Shown: piece by piece, positions 6,138 to 29,664 of the stretch
Layout: the number at the start of each line of letters is the position of its first letter
Position numbering within the stretch: position 1 is the stretch's first letter
NCBI GenBank assembly: GCA_047611425.1
Contig: JBLFWJ010000001.1
Coordinates: 4,038 to 68,037 of the forward strand
Source of the DNA: Bacteroidia bacterium
Lineage (GTDB): Bacteria > Bacteroidota > Bacteroidia > UBA10329
Reading direction: 5' to 3'
DNA length: 64,000 nt
Made by a program: the position numbers and the translations under genes
Notes under the pieces: generated by a model
Told to the model about the DNA's origin: nothing
The model's input: the letters and a program-made list of their open reading frames with translations, nothing else
Database searches by the model: none

Positions 6138-7262
6138 ATGCGCATAGCGGTAAACACAAGGCTTTTATTGCCCGGAAGATTAGAAGGGATTGGGCGTTTC
6201 ACAAATGAGACGCTTAAGATTCTAGTCGCTGATCATCCTGAAGTGGAATGGATTTTCCTTTTTGATCGCCCTTTTGACCAGCAGTTTATTTTTGGACCGA
6301 ACGTAACGCCCGTTGTGGTTTGGCCGCAAGCTCGACATCCTTTGCTTTGGACACTTTGGTTTGGGTATATGGTCCCACGTGTATTGAAAAAGCATAACGT
6401 TGACCTATTCTTATCACCAGATGGATACAATTCTTTGAATGCAGAAATGCCCACTGTTGATGTGATCCATGATTTAAATTTCGAGCACAATCCAGACGAT
6501 GTGCCGGGATGGGCAGGTAGATATTTGCGGAGCCATTTTCCGAAATTTGCCAAGGCATCCAAGCGTGTTGCCACGGTTTCTGAATACTCTAAAAGAGATA
6601 TTGAAAAAACCTATGGCATTGATTCCAGTAAGATAGATGTCGTCTATAATGGAGTGGATGCTCGATTCGCTCCAAGCTCAATCGACCAGAGGGTAAACAT
6701 TAGAAACCGAGAAGCCGGAGATAAACCATTCTTTCTTTACGTAGGTTCAATCAATCCTCGAAAGAATATTGAGCGGATGCTTCAAGCTTTTGATCAGTTC
6801 AAATCTGAAAATACGTCAAGAGAACACAAGCTCATTGTGGCAGGTGCAAAAATGGTTTGGACGGATAAAATGGAATCGACTTTTGATTCGATGCGTTTCA
6901 AGTCGGATGTGCTATTCAAGGGAAAAGTATCTGATACAACTCTTGGGGAATTGCTTGGTGCGGCAGAAGCCCTGGTCTACGTTTCTTATTTCGAGGGATT
7001 TGGTATTCCGGTGATTGAAGCCTTTCAAGCTGAACTTCCTGTAATCTGCTCTAGTGTTACAAGCCTACCCGAAGTTGCTGGTGATGCTGCTTTGCTCATT
7101 GACCCTTACGATGTGAATAGCATTACAAATGCCATGGCATCAATTGCGAATAATCCTAAATTGAGATTAGACCTTATTCAAAAAGGCAATGCTCGAAATG
7201 GCGTTTTTACTTGGCAGCGCACGGCTGACCTACTTTGGCAATCTATCCAGAAAGCGCTGTAA
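6138..7262 (+). CDS. Glycosyltransferase family 4 (GT-B fold)
   Basis: C-terminal EGFGIPVIEAFQAELPVICSSVTSLPEVAGDAALLIDP is the classic GT4 E-x7-E nucleotide-sugar-binding motif. Confidence 0.75.
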   Translation: MRIAVNTRLLLPGRLEGIGRFTNETLKILVADHPEVEWIFLFDRPFDQQFIFGPNVTPVVVWPQARHPLLWTLWFGYMVPRVLKKHNVDLFLSPDGYNSLNAEMPTVDVIHDLNFEHNPDDVPGWAGRYLRSHFPKFAKASKRVATVSEYSKRDIEKTYGIDSSKIDVVYNGVDARFAPSSIDQRVNIRNREAGDKPFFLYVGSINPRKNIERMLQAFDQFKSENTSREHKLIVAGAKMVWTDKMESTFDSMRFKSDVLFKGKVSDTTLGELLGAAEALVYVSYFEGFGIPVIEAFQAELPVICSSVTSLPEVAGDAALLIDPYDVNSITNAMASIANNPKLRLDLIQKGNARNGVFTWQRTADLLWQSIQKAL

Positions 7263-25539: not shown

Positions 25540-25564
25540 TTCTTTTTACCCTTTAAAAGAAAAA

Positions 25565-25600
25565 AGCCCCTTCCGCCTCAGGCGGAAGGGGCTTTTTGTT
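25565..25600 (+). terminator. Rho-independent terminator ending the ribosomal superoperon
   Basis: agccccttccgcc-tca-ggcggaaggggct 13-bp GC-rich stem followed by TTTTTGTTATTTG. Confidence 0.7.
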
Positions 25601-25665
25601 ATTTGTGATGTATATTCGAAATATGGTTCGAGTGATTCTATTGGGGGTGTTTTAGGTGTTTTTAA

Positions 25666-26145
25666 ATGGACACCGCATTAGTCATAGAAACCATTGTCGG
25701 CAGATACAACGCTGGAAAGAGTAAACGTACGATGACCTCAGACAATCTGAATTTAGCATTACGAGTTACATTTTTTGTCTTGTTCTCATTCATCTGCTCA
25801 GATTCCTTTGGCCAAAATTGGTTTAAAGCCTTTGAAGACCGTGACTATGTCGCCCTGCAAAGGCACATCGACAAGGGTAGAAACATTGACAGGGTTAATG
25901 ACCAAGGAGTATTTGCTCTGTGGCTTGCTACCACCAAAGCAGATACAGTAATGATGAAGTTTCTCCTAGGTAATGGCGCAAACCCTAATTTTTCGACTAA
26001 AAAGAGTTCAGCGCCATTGGTTTTTTGTGCTCAAGAGGGCAACATGACACCCGCGCGCATACTCATTGCATACAATGCGAATGTGGAATTCACTCAAAAC
26101 CTTCACAAGTTGTCCCCCATGAGGCAAGCCGTTCAAAATGGTTAA
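25666..26145 (+). CDS. Ankyrin-repeat protein, N-terminal part (secreted; the signal-peptide-like start is more likely the Met at 25732); frame breaks at 26138-26145
   Basis: Ankyrin repeats (VFALWLATTKADTVMMKFLLGNGANPN, APLVFCAQEGNMTPARILIAYNANVE...). Hydrophobic N-terminal segment LALRVTFFVLFSFICSDSFG. Confidence 0.5.
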   Translation: MDTALVIETIVGRYNAGKSKRTMTSDNLNLALRVTFFVLFSFICSDSFGQNWFKAFEDRDYVALQRHIDKGRNIDRVNDQGVFALWLATTKADTVMMKFLLGNGANPNFSTKKSSAPLVFCAQEGNMTPARILIAYNANVEFTQNLHKLSPMRQAVQNG

Positions 26146-26446
26146 ATATTTCCTCAAGAATGCGGCAGACGTGGACATTTTGGATGAAAGGAACATGTCT
26201 CCTTTGTTCCTAGCTAGTCAAAAGGGGTTTAAAGATATTGTTGAGATTCTTGTAGAGAACGGGGCTGAAGTCAATTTAAAGGACATTTATGGCGAAACAG
26301 CTCTATTCAAGGCCTGCAGACTTGGGAGAAAGGATATAATTGATTTTCTCATATCAAATGGCGCTGAGAAAAGATTGGTAAATATTAATGGTGCCAGCCT
26401 TTCCGATGTTGCTAAATTGAATGGTTATGAAATGTACGTTGACTAA
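26138..26446 (+). CDS. Ankyrin-repeat protein, C-terminal part in +1 frame (continuation of previous ORF, so either a frameshift/pseudogene or a sequencing error)
   Basis: MSPLFLASQKGFKDIVEILVENGAEVNLKDIYGETALFKACRLGRKDIIDFLISNGAE are canonical ANK repeats. An 8-nt overlap with the upstream ORF falls in the middle of a repeat. Confidence 0.5.
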   Translation: MVKYFLKNAADVDILDERNMSPLFLASQKGFKDIVEILVENGAEVNLKDIYGETALFKACRLGRKDIIDFLISNGAEKRLVNINGASLSDVAKLNGYEMYVD

Positions 26447-26547
26447 TCCAATAAAAACGCTTCCTATCAAAGCCTAATGCCAATTGAAGTACAGTTTAAA
26501 GATGGCAGTGTAGTGGTAGAGCGGTTGGTTGTGCAGCGGTGAGCTTA

Positions 26548-26653
26548 CTCCGGTCAGGTCGAGTGATTTTGCGAAGCAAAATTGTATCGAGACCCTTGGG
26601 AGGAAACGCTTCTCGAGACACCTCCGCTTCGCTGCGGCACTCGAAGTGACACC
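26548..26653 (+). repeat. Left repeat cluster: unit U1 (about 46 bp, 26548-26594) plus unit U2 (about 45 bp, 26609-26653), directly repeated on the other side of the GIY-YIG gene
   Basis: U1 ctccggtcaggtcgagtgattttgcgaagcaaaattgtatcgagacc and U2 cttctcgagacacctccgcttcgctgcggcactcgaagtgacacc recur at 27016-27061 and 26973-27017 (and a degenerate copy at 27078-27112) with about 90% identity. Confidence 0.7.
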
Positions 26654-26662
26654 TGAAGCAAG

Positions 26663-26956
26663 CTATTGATCAAAGTGTTTCTTCGATAAAAGGGGAAGTT
26701 CCTCGTAGTGACCCTTAATCAATGCCAACTTCTTTTTTCTTGACCATTTTTTCAGTTGCTTCTCAAACTGAATCGCCTTTTCTGGTGCGTTGAACATTTG
26801 CTGATAGACCAAGGTCAGGGGCCTTCTGGAAAAAGTGTAACAAGAAGGGTTTAAGCCACTTTCATGTTCTTCCAATCGTCTTTGAATATTGTTTGTGACG
26901 CCTGTGTAGAAGCTTTGGTCTTTGCATTCAAGGATGTAGACGAACATGAACTTCAT
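26663..26956 (-). CDS. GIY-YIG nuclease family protein (about 98 aa; start taken at MKFMFVYIL, since the longer track ORF reads into the repeat)
   Basis: FVYILECKDQSFYTGVTNNIQRRLEEHESG is the GIY-x10-YIG core with the conserved Arg and Glu. Size is typical of stand-alone GIY-YIG proteins. Confidence 0.7.
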   Translation of the reverse strand: MKFMFVYILECKDQSFYTGVTNNIQRRLEEHESGLNPSCYTFSRRPLTLVYQQMFNAPEKAIQFEKQLKKWSRKKKLALIKGHYEELPLLSKKHFDQ

Positions 26957-26972
26957 GAATGAAAGGTATAGA

Positions 26973-27112
26973 CTTCTCGATACACCTCCACTTCGTTCCG
27001 GCACTCGAAGTGACGCCCGGTCAGGTCGAGTGATTTTGCAGAGCAAAATTGTATCGAGACCGTTGTGTGAGGAAGGACTTCTCGATACTCGCTTCGCGAA
27101 CTCGAAGTGACG
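26973..27112 (+). repeat. Right repeat cluster: U2 (26973-27017), U1 (27016-27061), degenerate U2' (27078-27112)
   Basis: Direct copies of the units found at 26548-26653. The order differs from the left cluster (U2-U1-U2' versus U1-U2). Confidence 0.7.
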
Positions 27113-27126
27113 ATTATGAAGTCCCC

Positions 27127-29049
27127 TTACTCCGAATACTCACTTAGCTCCAACCACCTCAATTCCTTTTCCTCCAGTTTGGCAGTAACGGTTTCCAGTT
27201 CTTGGGCAAGTTCCATCAGCTTTTCATGGTCGGCTTCAACGAGTAGCTTTCCATTCAAATCAACCTTCTGGGCTTCCAGCTTGGGTATGTCTACCTCCAA
27301 TAGGCCAAACTCCCGCTTTTCATTAAAGCCCATTTTCTTTTTGTCCGCGTAACTCTCGGCAGCCTTTGGCTGTAGGGCCTTGGCCGTTGCCTCTTCCTTC
27401 TCGGTCTTATCCTGTTGCGCCTTCCAGACGGTGTACTGGCTATACGTACCTGGGAAGTCCTTTATCTTCCCATTGCCCTCAAACACAAAAAGGTGGTCGC
27501 TCAACTTATTCATGAAATGACGGTCGTGCGTCACGATAACCAAACAGCCTTCATATTCTTCCAAGAATTCCTCCAGTACATTAAGGGTAAGGAGGTCGAG
27601 GTCGTTGGTTGGCTCATCCAGAATTAGGAAATTCGGATTGGCCATTAGTACTGTAAGTAGGTAGAGTCGCTTGCGTTCTCCACCACTCAGTTTGTTTACG
27701 CGTTGAAAATGCGAACTCCTTGGAAAGAGGAACCGCTCCAACATCTGCGCAGCCGATATGGTCTTGCCTTTTTTAAGGGGGATGAACTCGGCAATGTCGG
27801 TGATGACCTCCTTCATCCGTTTGTCCTCCTTCAGCTTCATGCCTTCCTGTCCGAAGTACCCGAACTTAACCGTGTCTCCAATTACAACCTTGCCGCCATC
27901 TGGTTCTTCCTCACCAATAATCATCTTCAAAAAGGTGGACTTACCCGACCCATTGAATCCCACAATGGCCATCCGCTCCCTATGTTGGAACTTGTAGTCC
28001 AGCCCATCTAGGATTATCTTATCCCCATACTGCTTCTTTACTTTGTGCAGCTCCACGATCTTACCACCCAGTCGTTCTAGGCTGATTTCCAACTTCAACT
28101 CATCCCTTTTTAGATTGGTCTTGGCTGTTTTCTCTACATCGTAAAACGCACCTTCTCTCGACTTAGACTTGGTGGTTCGTGCCTTTGGCATCCTACGCAT
28201 CCAGTCCAGTTCCTTTCTATAAAGATTCTGTGCCTTATCAACATTGGCCTTCTGTACGTCTTCCCTGTTCGATTTATTCTCAAGGTAAAACGAGTAGTTG
28301 CCCTTGTGTCGGTAGATCTGGCTGTCCTCCAATTCTAGGATGTTGTCACACACCCGATCAAGGAAAACCCGATCGTGCGTTACCATTAGTAAGGTTCGGT
28401 CGGCCGTATTCAAGAACTTCTCCAGCCATTCGATCATTTGAAGATCCAAATGGTTGGTTGGCTCATCCAGTATGATCAAGTCGGGTTCATCAACCAGCAG
28501 CTTGGCCAAAGCGACACGCTTTCTCTGACCTCCGGATAACGTTCCGGTCGGTTGATCCAGATCGGTAATGTTTAGTTTTCCGAGTACCTCTTTAATAGTG
28601 CTTTCCAGATTCCATGCATTCAGGCTGTCCATTTTATTGAAAGCAGCCTGATAAGCTTTGTCGTCATCTGGATTAAGCAGACACTTCTCGTAATCCCGAA
28701 CTGCCTTCATGCGCTCATCCTCTGCGTTCAGAATGGCATTCATAACACTTAAGTCCTTAGGGAACTGTGGGTCCTGTTGCAGGAAACCCATTCGGAGTTC
28801 TCGCCTTTTGACTACTTCACCAGCCTCAGGCGGTTCAAGGCCTGCAATGATGTTCAGTAATGAAGTCTTTCCGGTTCCATTTCGGGCAACCAGCGCCACT
28901 TTCTGTCCTTTGGAAATTCCGAAGCACAAATCTTCAAAAAGCACGCGTTCACCATAGGATCGCTTTAGATTCTCTACTGAGAGGTAGTTCAATTGGAGGT
29001 AGGAGTATTGAGTACGGTGTACTCGGATTAAGCCGCGAAGATCGCTCAT
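27127..29049 (-). CDS. ABC-F family ATPase (Uup/YheS-like; two ABC domains plus C-terminal coiled-coil, no TM domain)
   Basis: Two Walker A (GxNGTGKTS, GFNGSGKST), two LSGG signature and two Walker B motifs. K/E-rich coiled-coil C-terminus. Confidence 0.85.
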   Translation of the reverse strand: MSDLRGLIRVHRTQYSYLQLNYLSVENLKRSYGERVLFEDLCFGISKGQKVALVARNGTGKTSLLNIIAGLEPPEAGEVVKRRELRMGFLQQDPQFPKDLSVMNAILNAEDERMKAVRDYEKCLLNPDDDKAYQAAFNKMDSLNAWNLESTIKEVLGKLNITDLDQPTGTLSGGQRKRVALAKLLVDEPDLIILDEPTNHLDLQMIEWLEKFLNTADRTLLMVTHDRVFLDRVCDNILELEDSQIYRHKGNYSFYLENKSNREDVQKANVDKAQNLYRKELDWMRRMPKARTTKSKSREGAFYDVEKTAKTNLKRDELKLEISLERLGGKIVELHKVKKQYGDKIILDGLDYKFQHRERMAIVGFNGSGKSTFLKMIIGEEEPDGGKVVIGDTVKFGYFGQEGMKLKEDKRMKEVITDIAEFIPLKKGKTISAAQMLERFLFPRSSHFQRVNKLSGGERKRLYLLTVLMANPNFLILDEPTNDLDLLTLNVLEEFLEEYEGCLVIVTHDRHFMNKLSDHLFVFEGNGKIKDFPGTYSQYTVWKAQQDKTEKEEATAKALQPKAAESYADKKKMGFNEKREFGLLEVDIPKLEAQKVDLNGKLLVEADHEKLMELAQELETVTAKLEEKELRWLELSEYSE

Positions 29050-29128: not shown

Positions 29129-29365
29129 ATGAATATCAGCTTCACTAAAAAGCAAGAAGATTATATCGCATCACAAGTAGCAACTGGAGATTTTCAGAAT
29201 GCAAGTGAGGTAGTGAGAGACGCCATGCGGCTCCATTTGCATTACAGGCATAAGATGTTGGAAGAATTGCGAGCAGCTATTGACGAAGGATTAAATAGCC
29301 CAGTTTCTGACAAGACAATGGATGACATTCTTCAGGAACAACGGGCCAAGTATAGCAAGAAGTGA
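29129..29365 (+). CDS. parD: Type II antitoxin, ParD family (RHH fold)
   Basis: 78 aa. ...DYIASQVATGDFQNASEVVRDAMRLHLHY... matches the ParD/COG3609 consensus (G.Y.SASEVVR.ALRLL). 4-nt ATGA overlap with the downstream toxin. Confidence 0.7.
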   Translation: MNISFTKKQEDYIASQVATGDFQNASEVVRDAMRLHLHYRHKMLEELRAAIDEGLNSPVSDKTMDDILQEQRAKYSKK

Positions 29366-29664
29366 GTGGTTACCAGCTTAGCCTAAGAGCTGTAACAGAT
29401 ATTGAGGAAATATTTCAATTTTCGGTTCTCGCGTTTGGCTTATCTCAAGCTGAAAAGTACCATGCCGAACTTGAAAATGTGTTTGCCACGATTGCTTCAG
29501 ATAACAGGATTGGAAAAACGAGGAGTGAATTACGAATTGGTCTTAGAAGCTTTGCCTACAGAAACCACATAGTCTTCTATAAGATTCTAAAAGATGGGAT
29601 ATTTATATCAAGAGTGCTCCATGGAAGTAAAGATTTGCCAGAGCAATATTTTGGAGATATCTAG
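29362..29664 (+). CDS. parE: Type II toxin, ParE/RelE family
   Basis: 100 aa, translationally coupled to parD. Sequence (...RSFAYRNHIVFYKILKDGIFISRVLHGSKDL) fits the ParE fold pattern. Confidence 0.65.
   Translation: MSGYQLSLRAVTDIEEIFQFSVLAFGLSQAEKYHAELENVFATIASDNRIGKTRSELRIGLRSFAYRNHIVFYKILKDGIFISRVLHGSKDLPEQYFGDI

Follow-up and report, generated by a model that had tools for sequence, protein, structure and literature searches.

We show here that a gene for a small stand-alone GIY-YIG nuclease lies within a compact array of five copies of one tagged hairpin in a 64,000-nucleotide stretch of DNA (the window) from a Bacteroidia bacterium of the GTDB lineage UBA10329 (assembly GCA_047611425.1, contig JBLFWJ010000001.1, positions 4,038 to 68,037 of the forward strand), and that the association between such genes and such hairpins holds from both directions, from the hairpin side and from the protein side. 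The locus probably represents a module like that of the Ssn nucleases of Neisseria, in which a single-domain GIY-YIG gene is placed inside a small array of presumed cognate hairpins. It looks like the published combination of Ssn nuclease and SRM motif in its architecture, with hairpin and protein both divergent, and on this comparison of sequences we treat it as working in the same way. The hairpins are a Bacteroidota-wide relative of the CGTC/TGTC-tagged repetitive extragenic palindromes (REPs) and of Ssn-related motifs.

The sequence-only reading of the window had proposed two different, alternating direct-repeat units, U1 and U2, around the gene. A direct-repeat search agreed with it on where the repeats lie, placing U1 at 26550-26598 and 27017-27065 (94% identical) and U2 at 26609-26653 and 26973-27017 (89% identical), while a third U2, at about 27078-27112, is shorter. 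The 23-nt core of U1 matched twice in the 64-kb window and not once in 100 shuffles. U1 and U2, the latter reverse-complemented, are one hairpin of about 45-50 nt, YGTCA-NN-TCGAGTG-(variable stem-loop)-TGTATCGAGA-N'N', built on the common plan of GTCA, two free bases, TCGAGTG, a free stem-loop, TGT(A)TCGAGA and the complement of the free bases. Since U1 is a reverse-complemented U2 unit, the array consists of a single unit in alternating orientation and not of two alternating direct repeats. The two flavors differ by paired changes, both in the free bases (GG/CC versus CT/AG) and in the apical stems (ATTTTGC/GCAAAAT versus CCGCAGC/GCGGAGG).

A scan of the 64 kb with R1, a covariance model built from pattern-selected instances of the hairpin, returned exactly five matches, all within 26549-27115 (E from 1e-11 to 2e-5; next best, E 0.38), so that the window's only GIY-YIG gene has all five hairpins around it in a span of no more than 570 bp. 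Their plus-strand order is U1(+) U2(-) (gene, -) U2(-) U1(+) U2'(-), so that along the coordinates two hairpins precede the gene and three follow it, forming two tail-to-tail doublets (26549-26654 and 27016-27115) plus one extra unit directly upstream of the gene. The first doublet joins U1a (26549-26598, plus strand; cGGTCA-GG-TCGAGTG-(ATTTTGC GAA GCAAAAT)-TGTATCGAGA-CC; 55.5 bits, E 1.3e-11) to U2a (26605-26654, minus strand; 49.1 bits, E 5.3e-10), and it folds into a single long hairpin (minus strand, z = -3.26). U2b (26969-27018, minus strand; 46.2 bits, E 2.8e-9), 89% identical to U2a, is oriented as the gene and ends 12-21 nt upstream of its two candidate start codons. Head-to-head with it stands U1b (27016-27065, plus strand; 52.8 bits, E 6.4e-11), 94% identical to U1a, the R1 matches for the two overlapping by 3 nt. 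U1b is in turn paired tail-to-tail with U2c (27074-27115, minus strand; 30.6 bits, E 2.3e-5), which has a shortened apical stem (TCGCGAAGCGA) and begins 11 nt past the stop codon of the neighboring ABC-F gene.

GTCA is present in all five copies, preceded by T or C in the U2 copies and by G in U1a and U1b. The apex GCGAAGC occurs in three of the five hairpins (26570-26577, 26628-26634, and 27094-27100); other members of the family have unrelated loops, and the apex is thus a local feature. As DNA, this heptamer reportedly forms an unusually stable mini-hairpin, a finding attributed to Hirao and colleagues in the 1990s. Integron attC sites were ruled out by inspection, as the array lacks GTTRRRY cores and its units alternate in direction instead of all facing one way. 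The termination role that had been suggested for the repeats found no support: a T-tract is missing from all five hairpins, and the sole intrinsic terminator called was that of rplQ at 25561-25597. Rfam gave no match in the 64 kb at gathering thresholds and one chance-level match only in 26400-27250 at E up to 10, and a tRNA/tmRNA scan found none.

The gene occupies 26663-26947 on the minus strand (ATG at 26947, stop at 26663) and encodes 94 amino acids, identical to a public protein of that length (P0001); an alternative ATG at 26956 would give 97 residues. Its earlier description as a stand-alone GIY-YIG gene on the opposite strand stands, with a match to PF01541 at E 1.9e-19. The Pfam domain covers residues 4-76 of 97, leaving no other domain and no DNA-binding extension, and Y4, Y14, R24, H28, and E62 are invariant in an alignment of 49 relatives (A2). 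A 127-residue open reading frame (ORF) that runs into the repeats from a TTG start was rejected as the gene. The closest relative of the protein is 64% identical, NCBIfam contains no match for it, and the 64-kb window holds no second copy of the gene. A search of plasmid proteins returned partial matches only, at 38-49% identity. On the Sphingomonas plasmid NZ_CP155752.1 (L206, 1492-2540), a 44%-identical homologue is flanked by short-form hairpins (GTTCAGGCTGAGCGAAGTCGAAGCC) and shares 4 nt with the start of an RNA methyltransferase gene, which recalls the fusion of a GIY-YIG domain to a TrmH-type methyltransferase described in Erythrobacter (Dunin-Horkawicz et al. 2006, PMC1564403).

Outside the window, the hairpin was sought with the pattern GTCANNTCGAGTGN{13,21}TGTNTCGAGA in one genome per species. 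At least 120 genome loci matched, against roughly 10 expected by chance, the latter being an estimate from 20 fixed bases, nine gap lengths, and 596 Gb. The suspicion that the repeats are a REP-like, multicopy family was therefore well founded, the unit being present in many other genomes. Among the matches listed, almost all belonged to Flavobacteriaceae, Weeksellaceae, and other Bacteroidota, together with one Chlorobiota contig. Perfect copies were also seen on contigs binned as Candidatus Dojkabacteria of the candidate phyla radiation (L065, 216-322 and 4423-4544; L072, 3373-3415), where they could reflect mis-binning or transfer.

Formation of the hairpin, also proposed earlier, is supported by covariation. 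In an alignment of 98 instances (A1), 95.3% of cells were paired, compared with 68.6% after shuffling and at most 53% in slid-partner controls, and all eight pairs free to vary showed double changes. In the unit, the YGTCA 5' tag is unpaired, the outer stem of 2 bp covaries, a GA is bulged, the TCGA/TCGA box and the GTG/TGTA internal loop are fixed, and the apical stem covaries freely, giving a stem of 2 + 4 + about 6 bp interrupted by the bulge and the internal loop. Because the instances behind R1 were pattern-selected, part of the conservation seen in the fixed boxes comes from the selection itself. The position preceding GTCA lies outside the search pattern and was C or T in 96% of 152 instances, and the same comparison of flanks found no other conserved position. 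A wobble asymmetry (18 G-T versus 6 A-C in 1173 cells) was too weak to show on which strand selection acts, or whether it acts on DNA or on RNA.

In 60 genome loci, R1 found 147 units, 63% of them within 40 nt of another unit. Adjacent pairs (n = 51) were tail-to-tail in 32 cases, head-to-head in 16, and in the same direction in 3, so that 48 of 51 were inverted. Unit midpoints fell into long open stretches in only 7% of cases, although such stretches cover 82% of the sequence, in line with the earlier view that the repeats are noncoding. Given this extragenic placement and the inverted doublets, the family behaves like REPs and the bacterial interspersed mosaic elements (BIMEs) composed of them. 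Several loci deserve separate mention: two have at least 25 alternating hairpins around one GIY-YIG gene (L144, 298-2589; L145, 217-1871), one has a 12-unit array without the gene (L197, 7514-8303), one consists of same-direction tandem repeats of about 217 bp with one hairpin each (L125, 3884-5213), and one has nine same-direction copies 97-152 bp apart (L040, 7059-7851). Searching the literature by repeat sequence produced unrelated primers only.

The connection of hairpin and gene was assessed per locus or contig. From the hairpin side, a GIY-YIG homologue was present in 4 of 120 among the matches listed, and in three of these four the gene lay within about 100 nt of a hairpin. For the protein side, 80 metagenome loci were picked by protein similarity alone; 19 of them contained 134 R1 matches, which mostly abutted the gene on both sides. 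Up to 250 nt from the gene, R1 density was 1.87/kb; past 1 kb, most bins had about 0-0.1/kb, except in the range of 2-3.5 kb, where up to 0.35/kb came mainly from the one gene-free array in L197. Most of the remaining protein-selected loci carry a shorter relative of the hairpin, e.g., GTCACCCTGAGCGGAGTCGAAGGGT. In 56 of the 80 loci, a generic detector of GTCA-tagged hairpins found a match no farther than 300 nt from the gene, and the density was 4.35/kb near the gene versus about 0.1/kb far away. The proposal that the repeats are linked to small GIY-YIG genes is thereby upheld, and it is likely that they serve as cognate recognition sequences. Apart from the study on Ssn nucleases, the literature search found no work joining GIY-YIG, COG2827, or YhbQ proteins with REPs, RAYTs (REP-associated tyrosine transposases), or Bacteroidetes repeats.

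That study described SsnA of Neisseria as a 94-residue single-domain GIY-YIG protein, which binds and cuts single-stranded DNA (ssDNA) beside the NTS hairpin (CGTCATTCCCGCG...GCGGGAATC) (Chenal et al., Nat Commun 2025, PMC11893778). The enzyme was inactive on duplex DNA, on RNA, and on the opposite strand, did not bind RNA, and had SRM motifs near 71% of its homologues (PMC11893778). Of the genomes rich in SRMs, 81% were found to carry the gene. For comparison we fetched one locus each from Neisseria gonorrhoeae (L209) and Azospirillum (L210), using a consensus sequence as a probe only, which is not itself evidence. The first served as positive control and showed a 94-residue ssnA ortholog with Y6 and Y17 amid nine alternating NTS units; the homologue in the second was accompanied by four SRM units. 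As a side remark, PLSDB files two 2.17-Mb N. gonorrhoeae chromosomes as plasmids (NZ_CP119140.1 and NZ_CP119142.1), one of which is the source of L209. Over 78 residues, the window protein and Neisseria SsnA share 40% identity (pairwise E 2e-12, hhalign probability 98.5%); by our estimate, which was not computed, it would fall short of the published homologue cutoff for the SsnA clade (CDD cd10448), tblastn E < 1e-10, in a genome-sized search.

Several observations weigh against an Ssn-like module. The clade of the window protein scored 43-48 bits against three canonical Ssn proteins and slightly more, 52-62 bits, against UPF0213 proteins (1zg2, 1ywl, and a Cupriavidus gene), and a crude neighbor-joining tree, one of our simple distance trees of 90-residue proteins, placed it between Ssn and UPF0213. 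The published SRM pattern, HGTCWYN(0-2)YYVSBRHN(0-5)WNVSBRGN(0-2)RNCYNB, matched nowhere in the window, in none of 98 instances of the hairpin family, and in none of the 80 protein-selected loci within 500 nt of the gene, with a script that recovered nine NTS in L209 and four SRM in L210. Hairpin type does track protein clade, a point in favor of such a module (among loci bearing the long hairpin, 14 of 16 nearest neighbors by protein similarity versus 3.1 expected), but this correlation is confounded by taxonomy, and the window protein falls outside the main clade carrying the long type. The R1 scan of the 64-kb window found no hairpin copies beyond the five around the gene. Finally, it is from homology that we infer ssDNA cleavage by the window clade.

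With the fold and the gene association resting on the observations above and the enzymatic step modeled on the 40%-identical SsnA, an Ssn-like module would operate as follows. The tagged strand would fold once the DNA becomes single-stranded, be it in replication, in repair, or in incoming DNA. The nuclease would then bind the tag plus the stem and nick the single strand on the 5' side of the tag, at a distance of a few nucleotides, presumably without acting on duplex DNA or RNA. More speculatively, such a module might control the recombination or exchange of the DNA that it flanks, the hairpins here lying at the border of a segment whose content varies among near-identical strains.

This segment, 25570-27125, comprises ankyrin ORFs, the five hairpins, and the GIY-YIG gene, and was delimited by blastn of five contigs (L001-L005) against the window. 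In all five, the ABC-F protein is identical to that of the window and the flanks are 99.5-99.9% identical, homology stopping at 25569 and 27126. The 1556 bp between are replaced by an unrelated 789-bp ParD-like cassette (L001, 6250-7038) with an 85-residue ParD-like gene followed by a decayed ParE-like region. Comparison of the rplQ-to-ABC-F region in relatives, suggested earlier as a search for an empty site, thus uncovered a substitution and not a simple absence. The cassette is bounded by a second, 78%-identical copy of the last 50 nt of the ABC-F gene, which suggests replacement by recombination with diverged DNA. In L001, one 3'-end copy of ABC-F is followed by a plain GTCA-tagged hairpin with an NTS-like layout (TGTCATGCCGTGCGAAGACACGGCATC, 6266-6300), and the other by a GTCA-tagged sequence that looks like a truncated short-form unit (GTCACGCTGAGCGGAG, 6976-6993). 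Tagged hairpins therefore stand at the junction in both versions of the locus, and in both the tagged hairpin starts 11-20 nt past the ABC-F stop codon. A second sample (L212) carried the window's version at 99.9% identity. Because the polymorphism covers the whole segment, it does not demonstrate that the nuclease cassette moves alone, and comparison of L001-L005 and L212 gave no evidence of the cassette moving as a unit.

A further, tentative possibility is that the window clade forms a separate sister family of the Ssn nucleases with a GTCA-tagged hairpin superfamily of its own, sharing a GAG...TCGA core. The clade is common in Bacteroidota and present also on the Sphingomonas plasmid, its hairpin occurring in a short and a long form. 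With the long form, the enzyme would read the TCGAGTG / TGTATCGAGA box and the bulged GA and would ignore the apical stem. The sister family might even be the missing partner that spreads the CGTC/TGTC-tagged REPs.

Rather unlikely, yet compatible and overlapping with an Ssn-like module, is the unproven idea of an analogue of the REPIN/RAYT system, in which the nuclease copies or moves hairpin doublets and the gene is kept for maintaining the repeats. The family is dispersed, extragenic, and mostly arranged in inverted doublets like REPINs and BIMEs, the gene is repeat-flanked as RAYT genes are, and large arrays adjoin it in L144, L145, and L197. For CGTC-tagged REPs, the absence of a dedicated transposase has been reported (PMC3733652), and the authors of the Ssn study themselves likened the NTS-ssnA-NTS layout to that of RAYT and REP (PMC11893778). 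At the window locus, however, no excision or insertion event was seen, and the copies are only 89-94% alike and therefore not recent. GIY-YIG enzymes hydrolyze DNA and are not known to pass through the covalent intermediate by which strands are transferred.

The first interpretation of the locus had been a miniature mobile cassette, and a selfish version of this, a homing-type GIY-YIG gene with the hairpin as its target and existing arrays as its insertion sites, appears improbable. The gene does lie between two U2 copies of the same orientation, readable as a duplicated target, the plus-gene-plus layout recurs in L144, L145, and L154, and near-identical strains differ in whether they have the segment. 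Yet the polymorphic segment is larger than the cassette, including the ankyrin genes, and was replaced rather than simply lost. Flank orientation varies among loci, the immediate flanks being inverted in seven mapped ones. With this variation, without close copies (nearest homologue 64% identical, none other in the window), and without a DNA-binding domain beyond the Pfam match, a homing-type gene is unlikely. A conventional GIY-YIG homing endonuclease was rejected for its want of an extra domain, its 64%-identical closest relative, and its chromosomal context.

Least probable of all is that the hairpins are RNA-level elements (stabilizers in 3' untranslated regions (UTRs), terminators, or a structured regulatory RNA) found near a nuclease gene by chance: they are extragenic, one begins 11 nt past the ABC-F stop codon, and E. 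coli REPs are known to act in 3' UTRs (10.64898/2026.03.23.713779), but with opposite orientations side by side at most half of them could be read on one transcript, T-tracts, terminator calls, and Rfam matches above chance level are lacking among them, SsnA does not bind RNA (PMC11893778), and the roughly 20-40-fold hairpin enrichment at GIY-YIG genes would go unexplained.

The GIY-YIG gene has ankyrin, L17, and ABC-F genes as neighbors. Its placement between the terminator of the ribosomal operon and the ABC-F gene, as first described, holds on the ABC-F side, which adjoins the array; on the other side, two ankyrin-repeat ORFs (25666-26145 and 26138-26446; 159 and 102 residues) intervene between the rplQ terminator and the cassette. 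They lie on the same strand with an 8-nt overlap and may be one gene split by a frameshift, and a hydrophobic N-terminal stretch of the first could be a signal peptide. Ribosomal protein L17 (24862-25539, 225 residues) matches its Pfam domain at residues 20-116 and extends beyond it in a C-terminal tail of about 100 residues, of low complexity and rich in Ala, Glu, Lys, and Pro. Directly upstream of the ABC-F gene lies a ParD/ParE-type toxin-antitoxin pair (29129-29664). At the corresponding position (about 3630-4250 in L001 and L003), both genes were called in L003 and L005 and only ParD in L001, L002, and L004, a second small polymorphism beside the same ABC-F gene.

Site-specific nucleases of single-stranded DNA were first described in 2025, and four enzymes were tested, three from Neisseria and one from Wolbachia. 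The basic picture published for Ssn stays unchanged by our findings. If the window clade acts alike, it would provide a large set of enzyme-hairpin pairs from another phylum and a different, more elaborate recognition element of use for ssDNA tools. Recognition through fixed boxes with a free apical stem, if true, would be a mode of recognition new among site-specific single-strand nucleases. The clade would likewise be a candidate protein partner for CGTC/TGTC-tagged repeats reported to have none, and locally, the module would mark the edge of a gene segment swapped between near-identical strains.

Among known systems, the UPF0213 proteins (YhbQ/YazA) provide the best matches of solved structure (PDB 1zg2, E 1.3e-15; 1ywl, E 2.8e-11) and share with the window protein the minimal GIY-YIG fold, the size, and the 10-residue spacing between the two tyrosines. 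They differ in a GxGAKYT segment (GKG-AKYT in 1zg2, GTGAKYT in 1ywl), where the window protein has GLNPSCYTF, and no flanking hairpin repeats were present at the single UPF0213 locus inspected (Cupriavidus, L207).

REPs and BIMEs with their RAYT (TnpA-REP) genes show extragenic alternating hairpins, two flavors combined in doublets, and a repeat-flanked partner gene, just as seen here; their tag is GTAG and their enzyme an HUH/Y1 transposase, whereas the present system has a YGTCA tag and a hydrolytic GIY-YIG nuclease. The REPs defined by a CGTC/TGTC tag, including those of Bacteroidetes and Chlorobi and without a dedicated flanking transposase (Di Nocera et al. 2013, PMC3733652), resemble the window family in their unpaired terminal tag, their extragenic palindromic units, and their dimers of opposite orientation. 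Their stem is uninterrupted, measures 8-9 bp, and begins with A-T pairs, their loop has 4-5 nt, and their tail reads CCA (PMC3733652), whereas the stem of the window family is interrupted. Head-to-head dimers predominate among them (PMC3733652), while tail-to-tail ones are twice as common in the window family (32 versus 16), and the paper draws no link to GIY-YIG genes.

The likeness to the Ssn system extends over several features. As in the gonococcal control locus, the window gene is embedded in alternating hairpins and flanked by them on both sides. It likewise encodes a single-domain GIY-YIG protein of about 94 residues without a DNA-binding extension, and Y4, Y14, and E62 align with Y6, Y17, and E64 of SsnA. 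Both repeat families are extragenic and clustered, and in the window family an unpaired YGTC(A) 5' tag gives the hairpin its direction, comparable to the SRM tag HGTCW. The window hairpin is longer and composite, with its outer stem, GA bulge, TCGA box, GTG/TGTA loop, and variable apical stem, and its host phylum, Bacteroidota, goes unmentioned in the main text of the Ssn study (PMC11893778).

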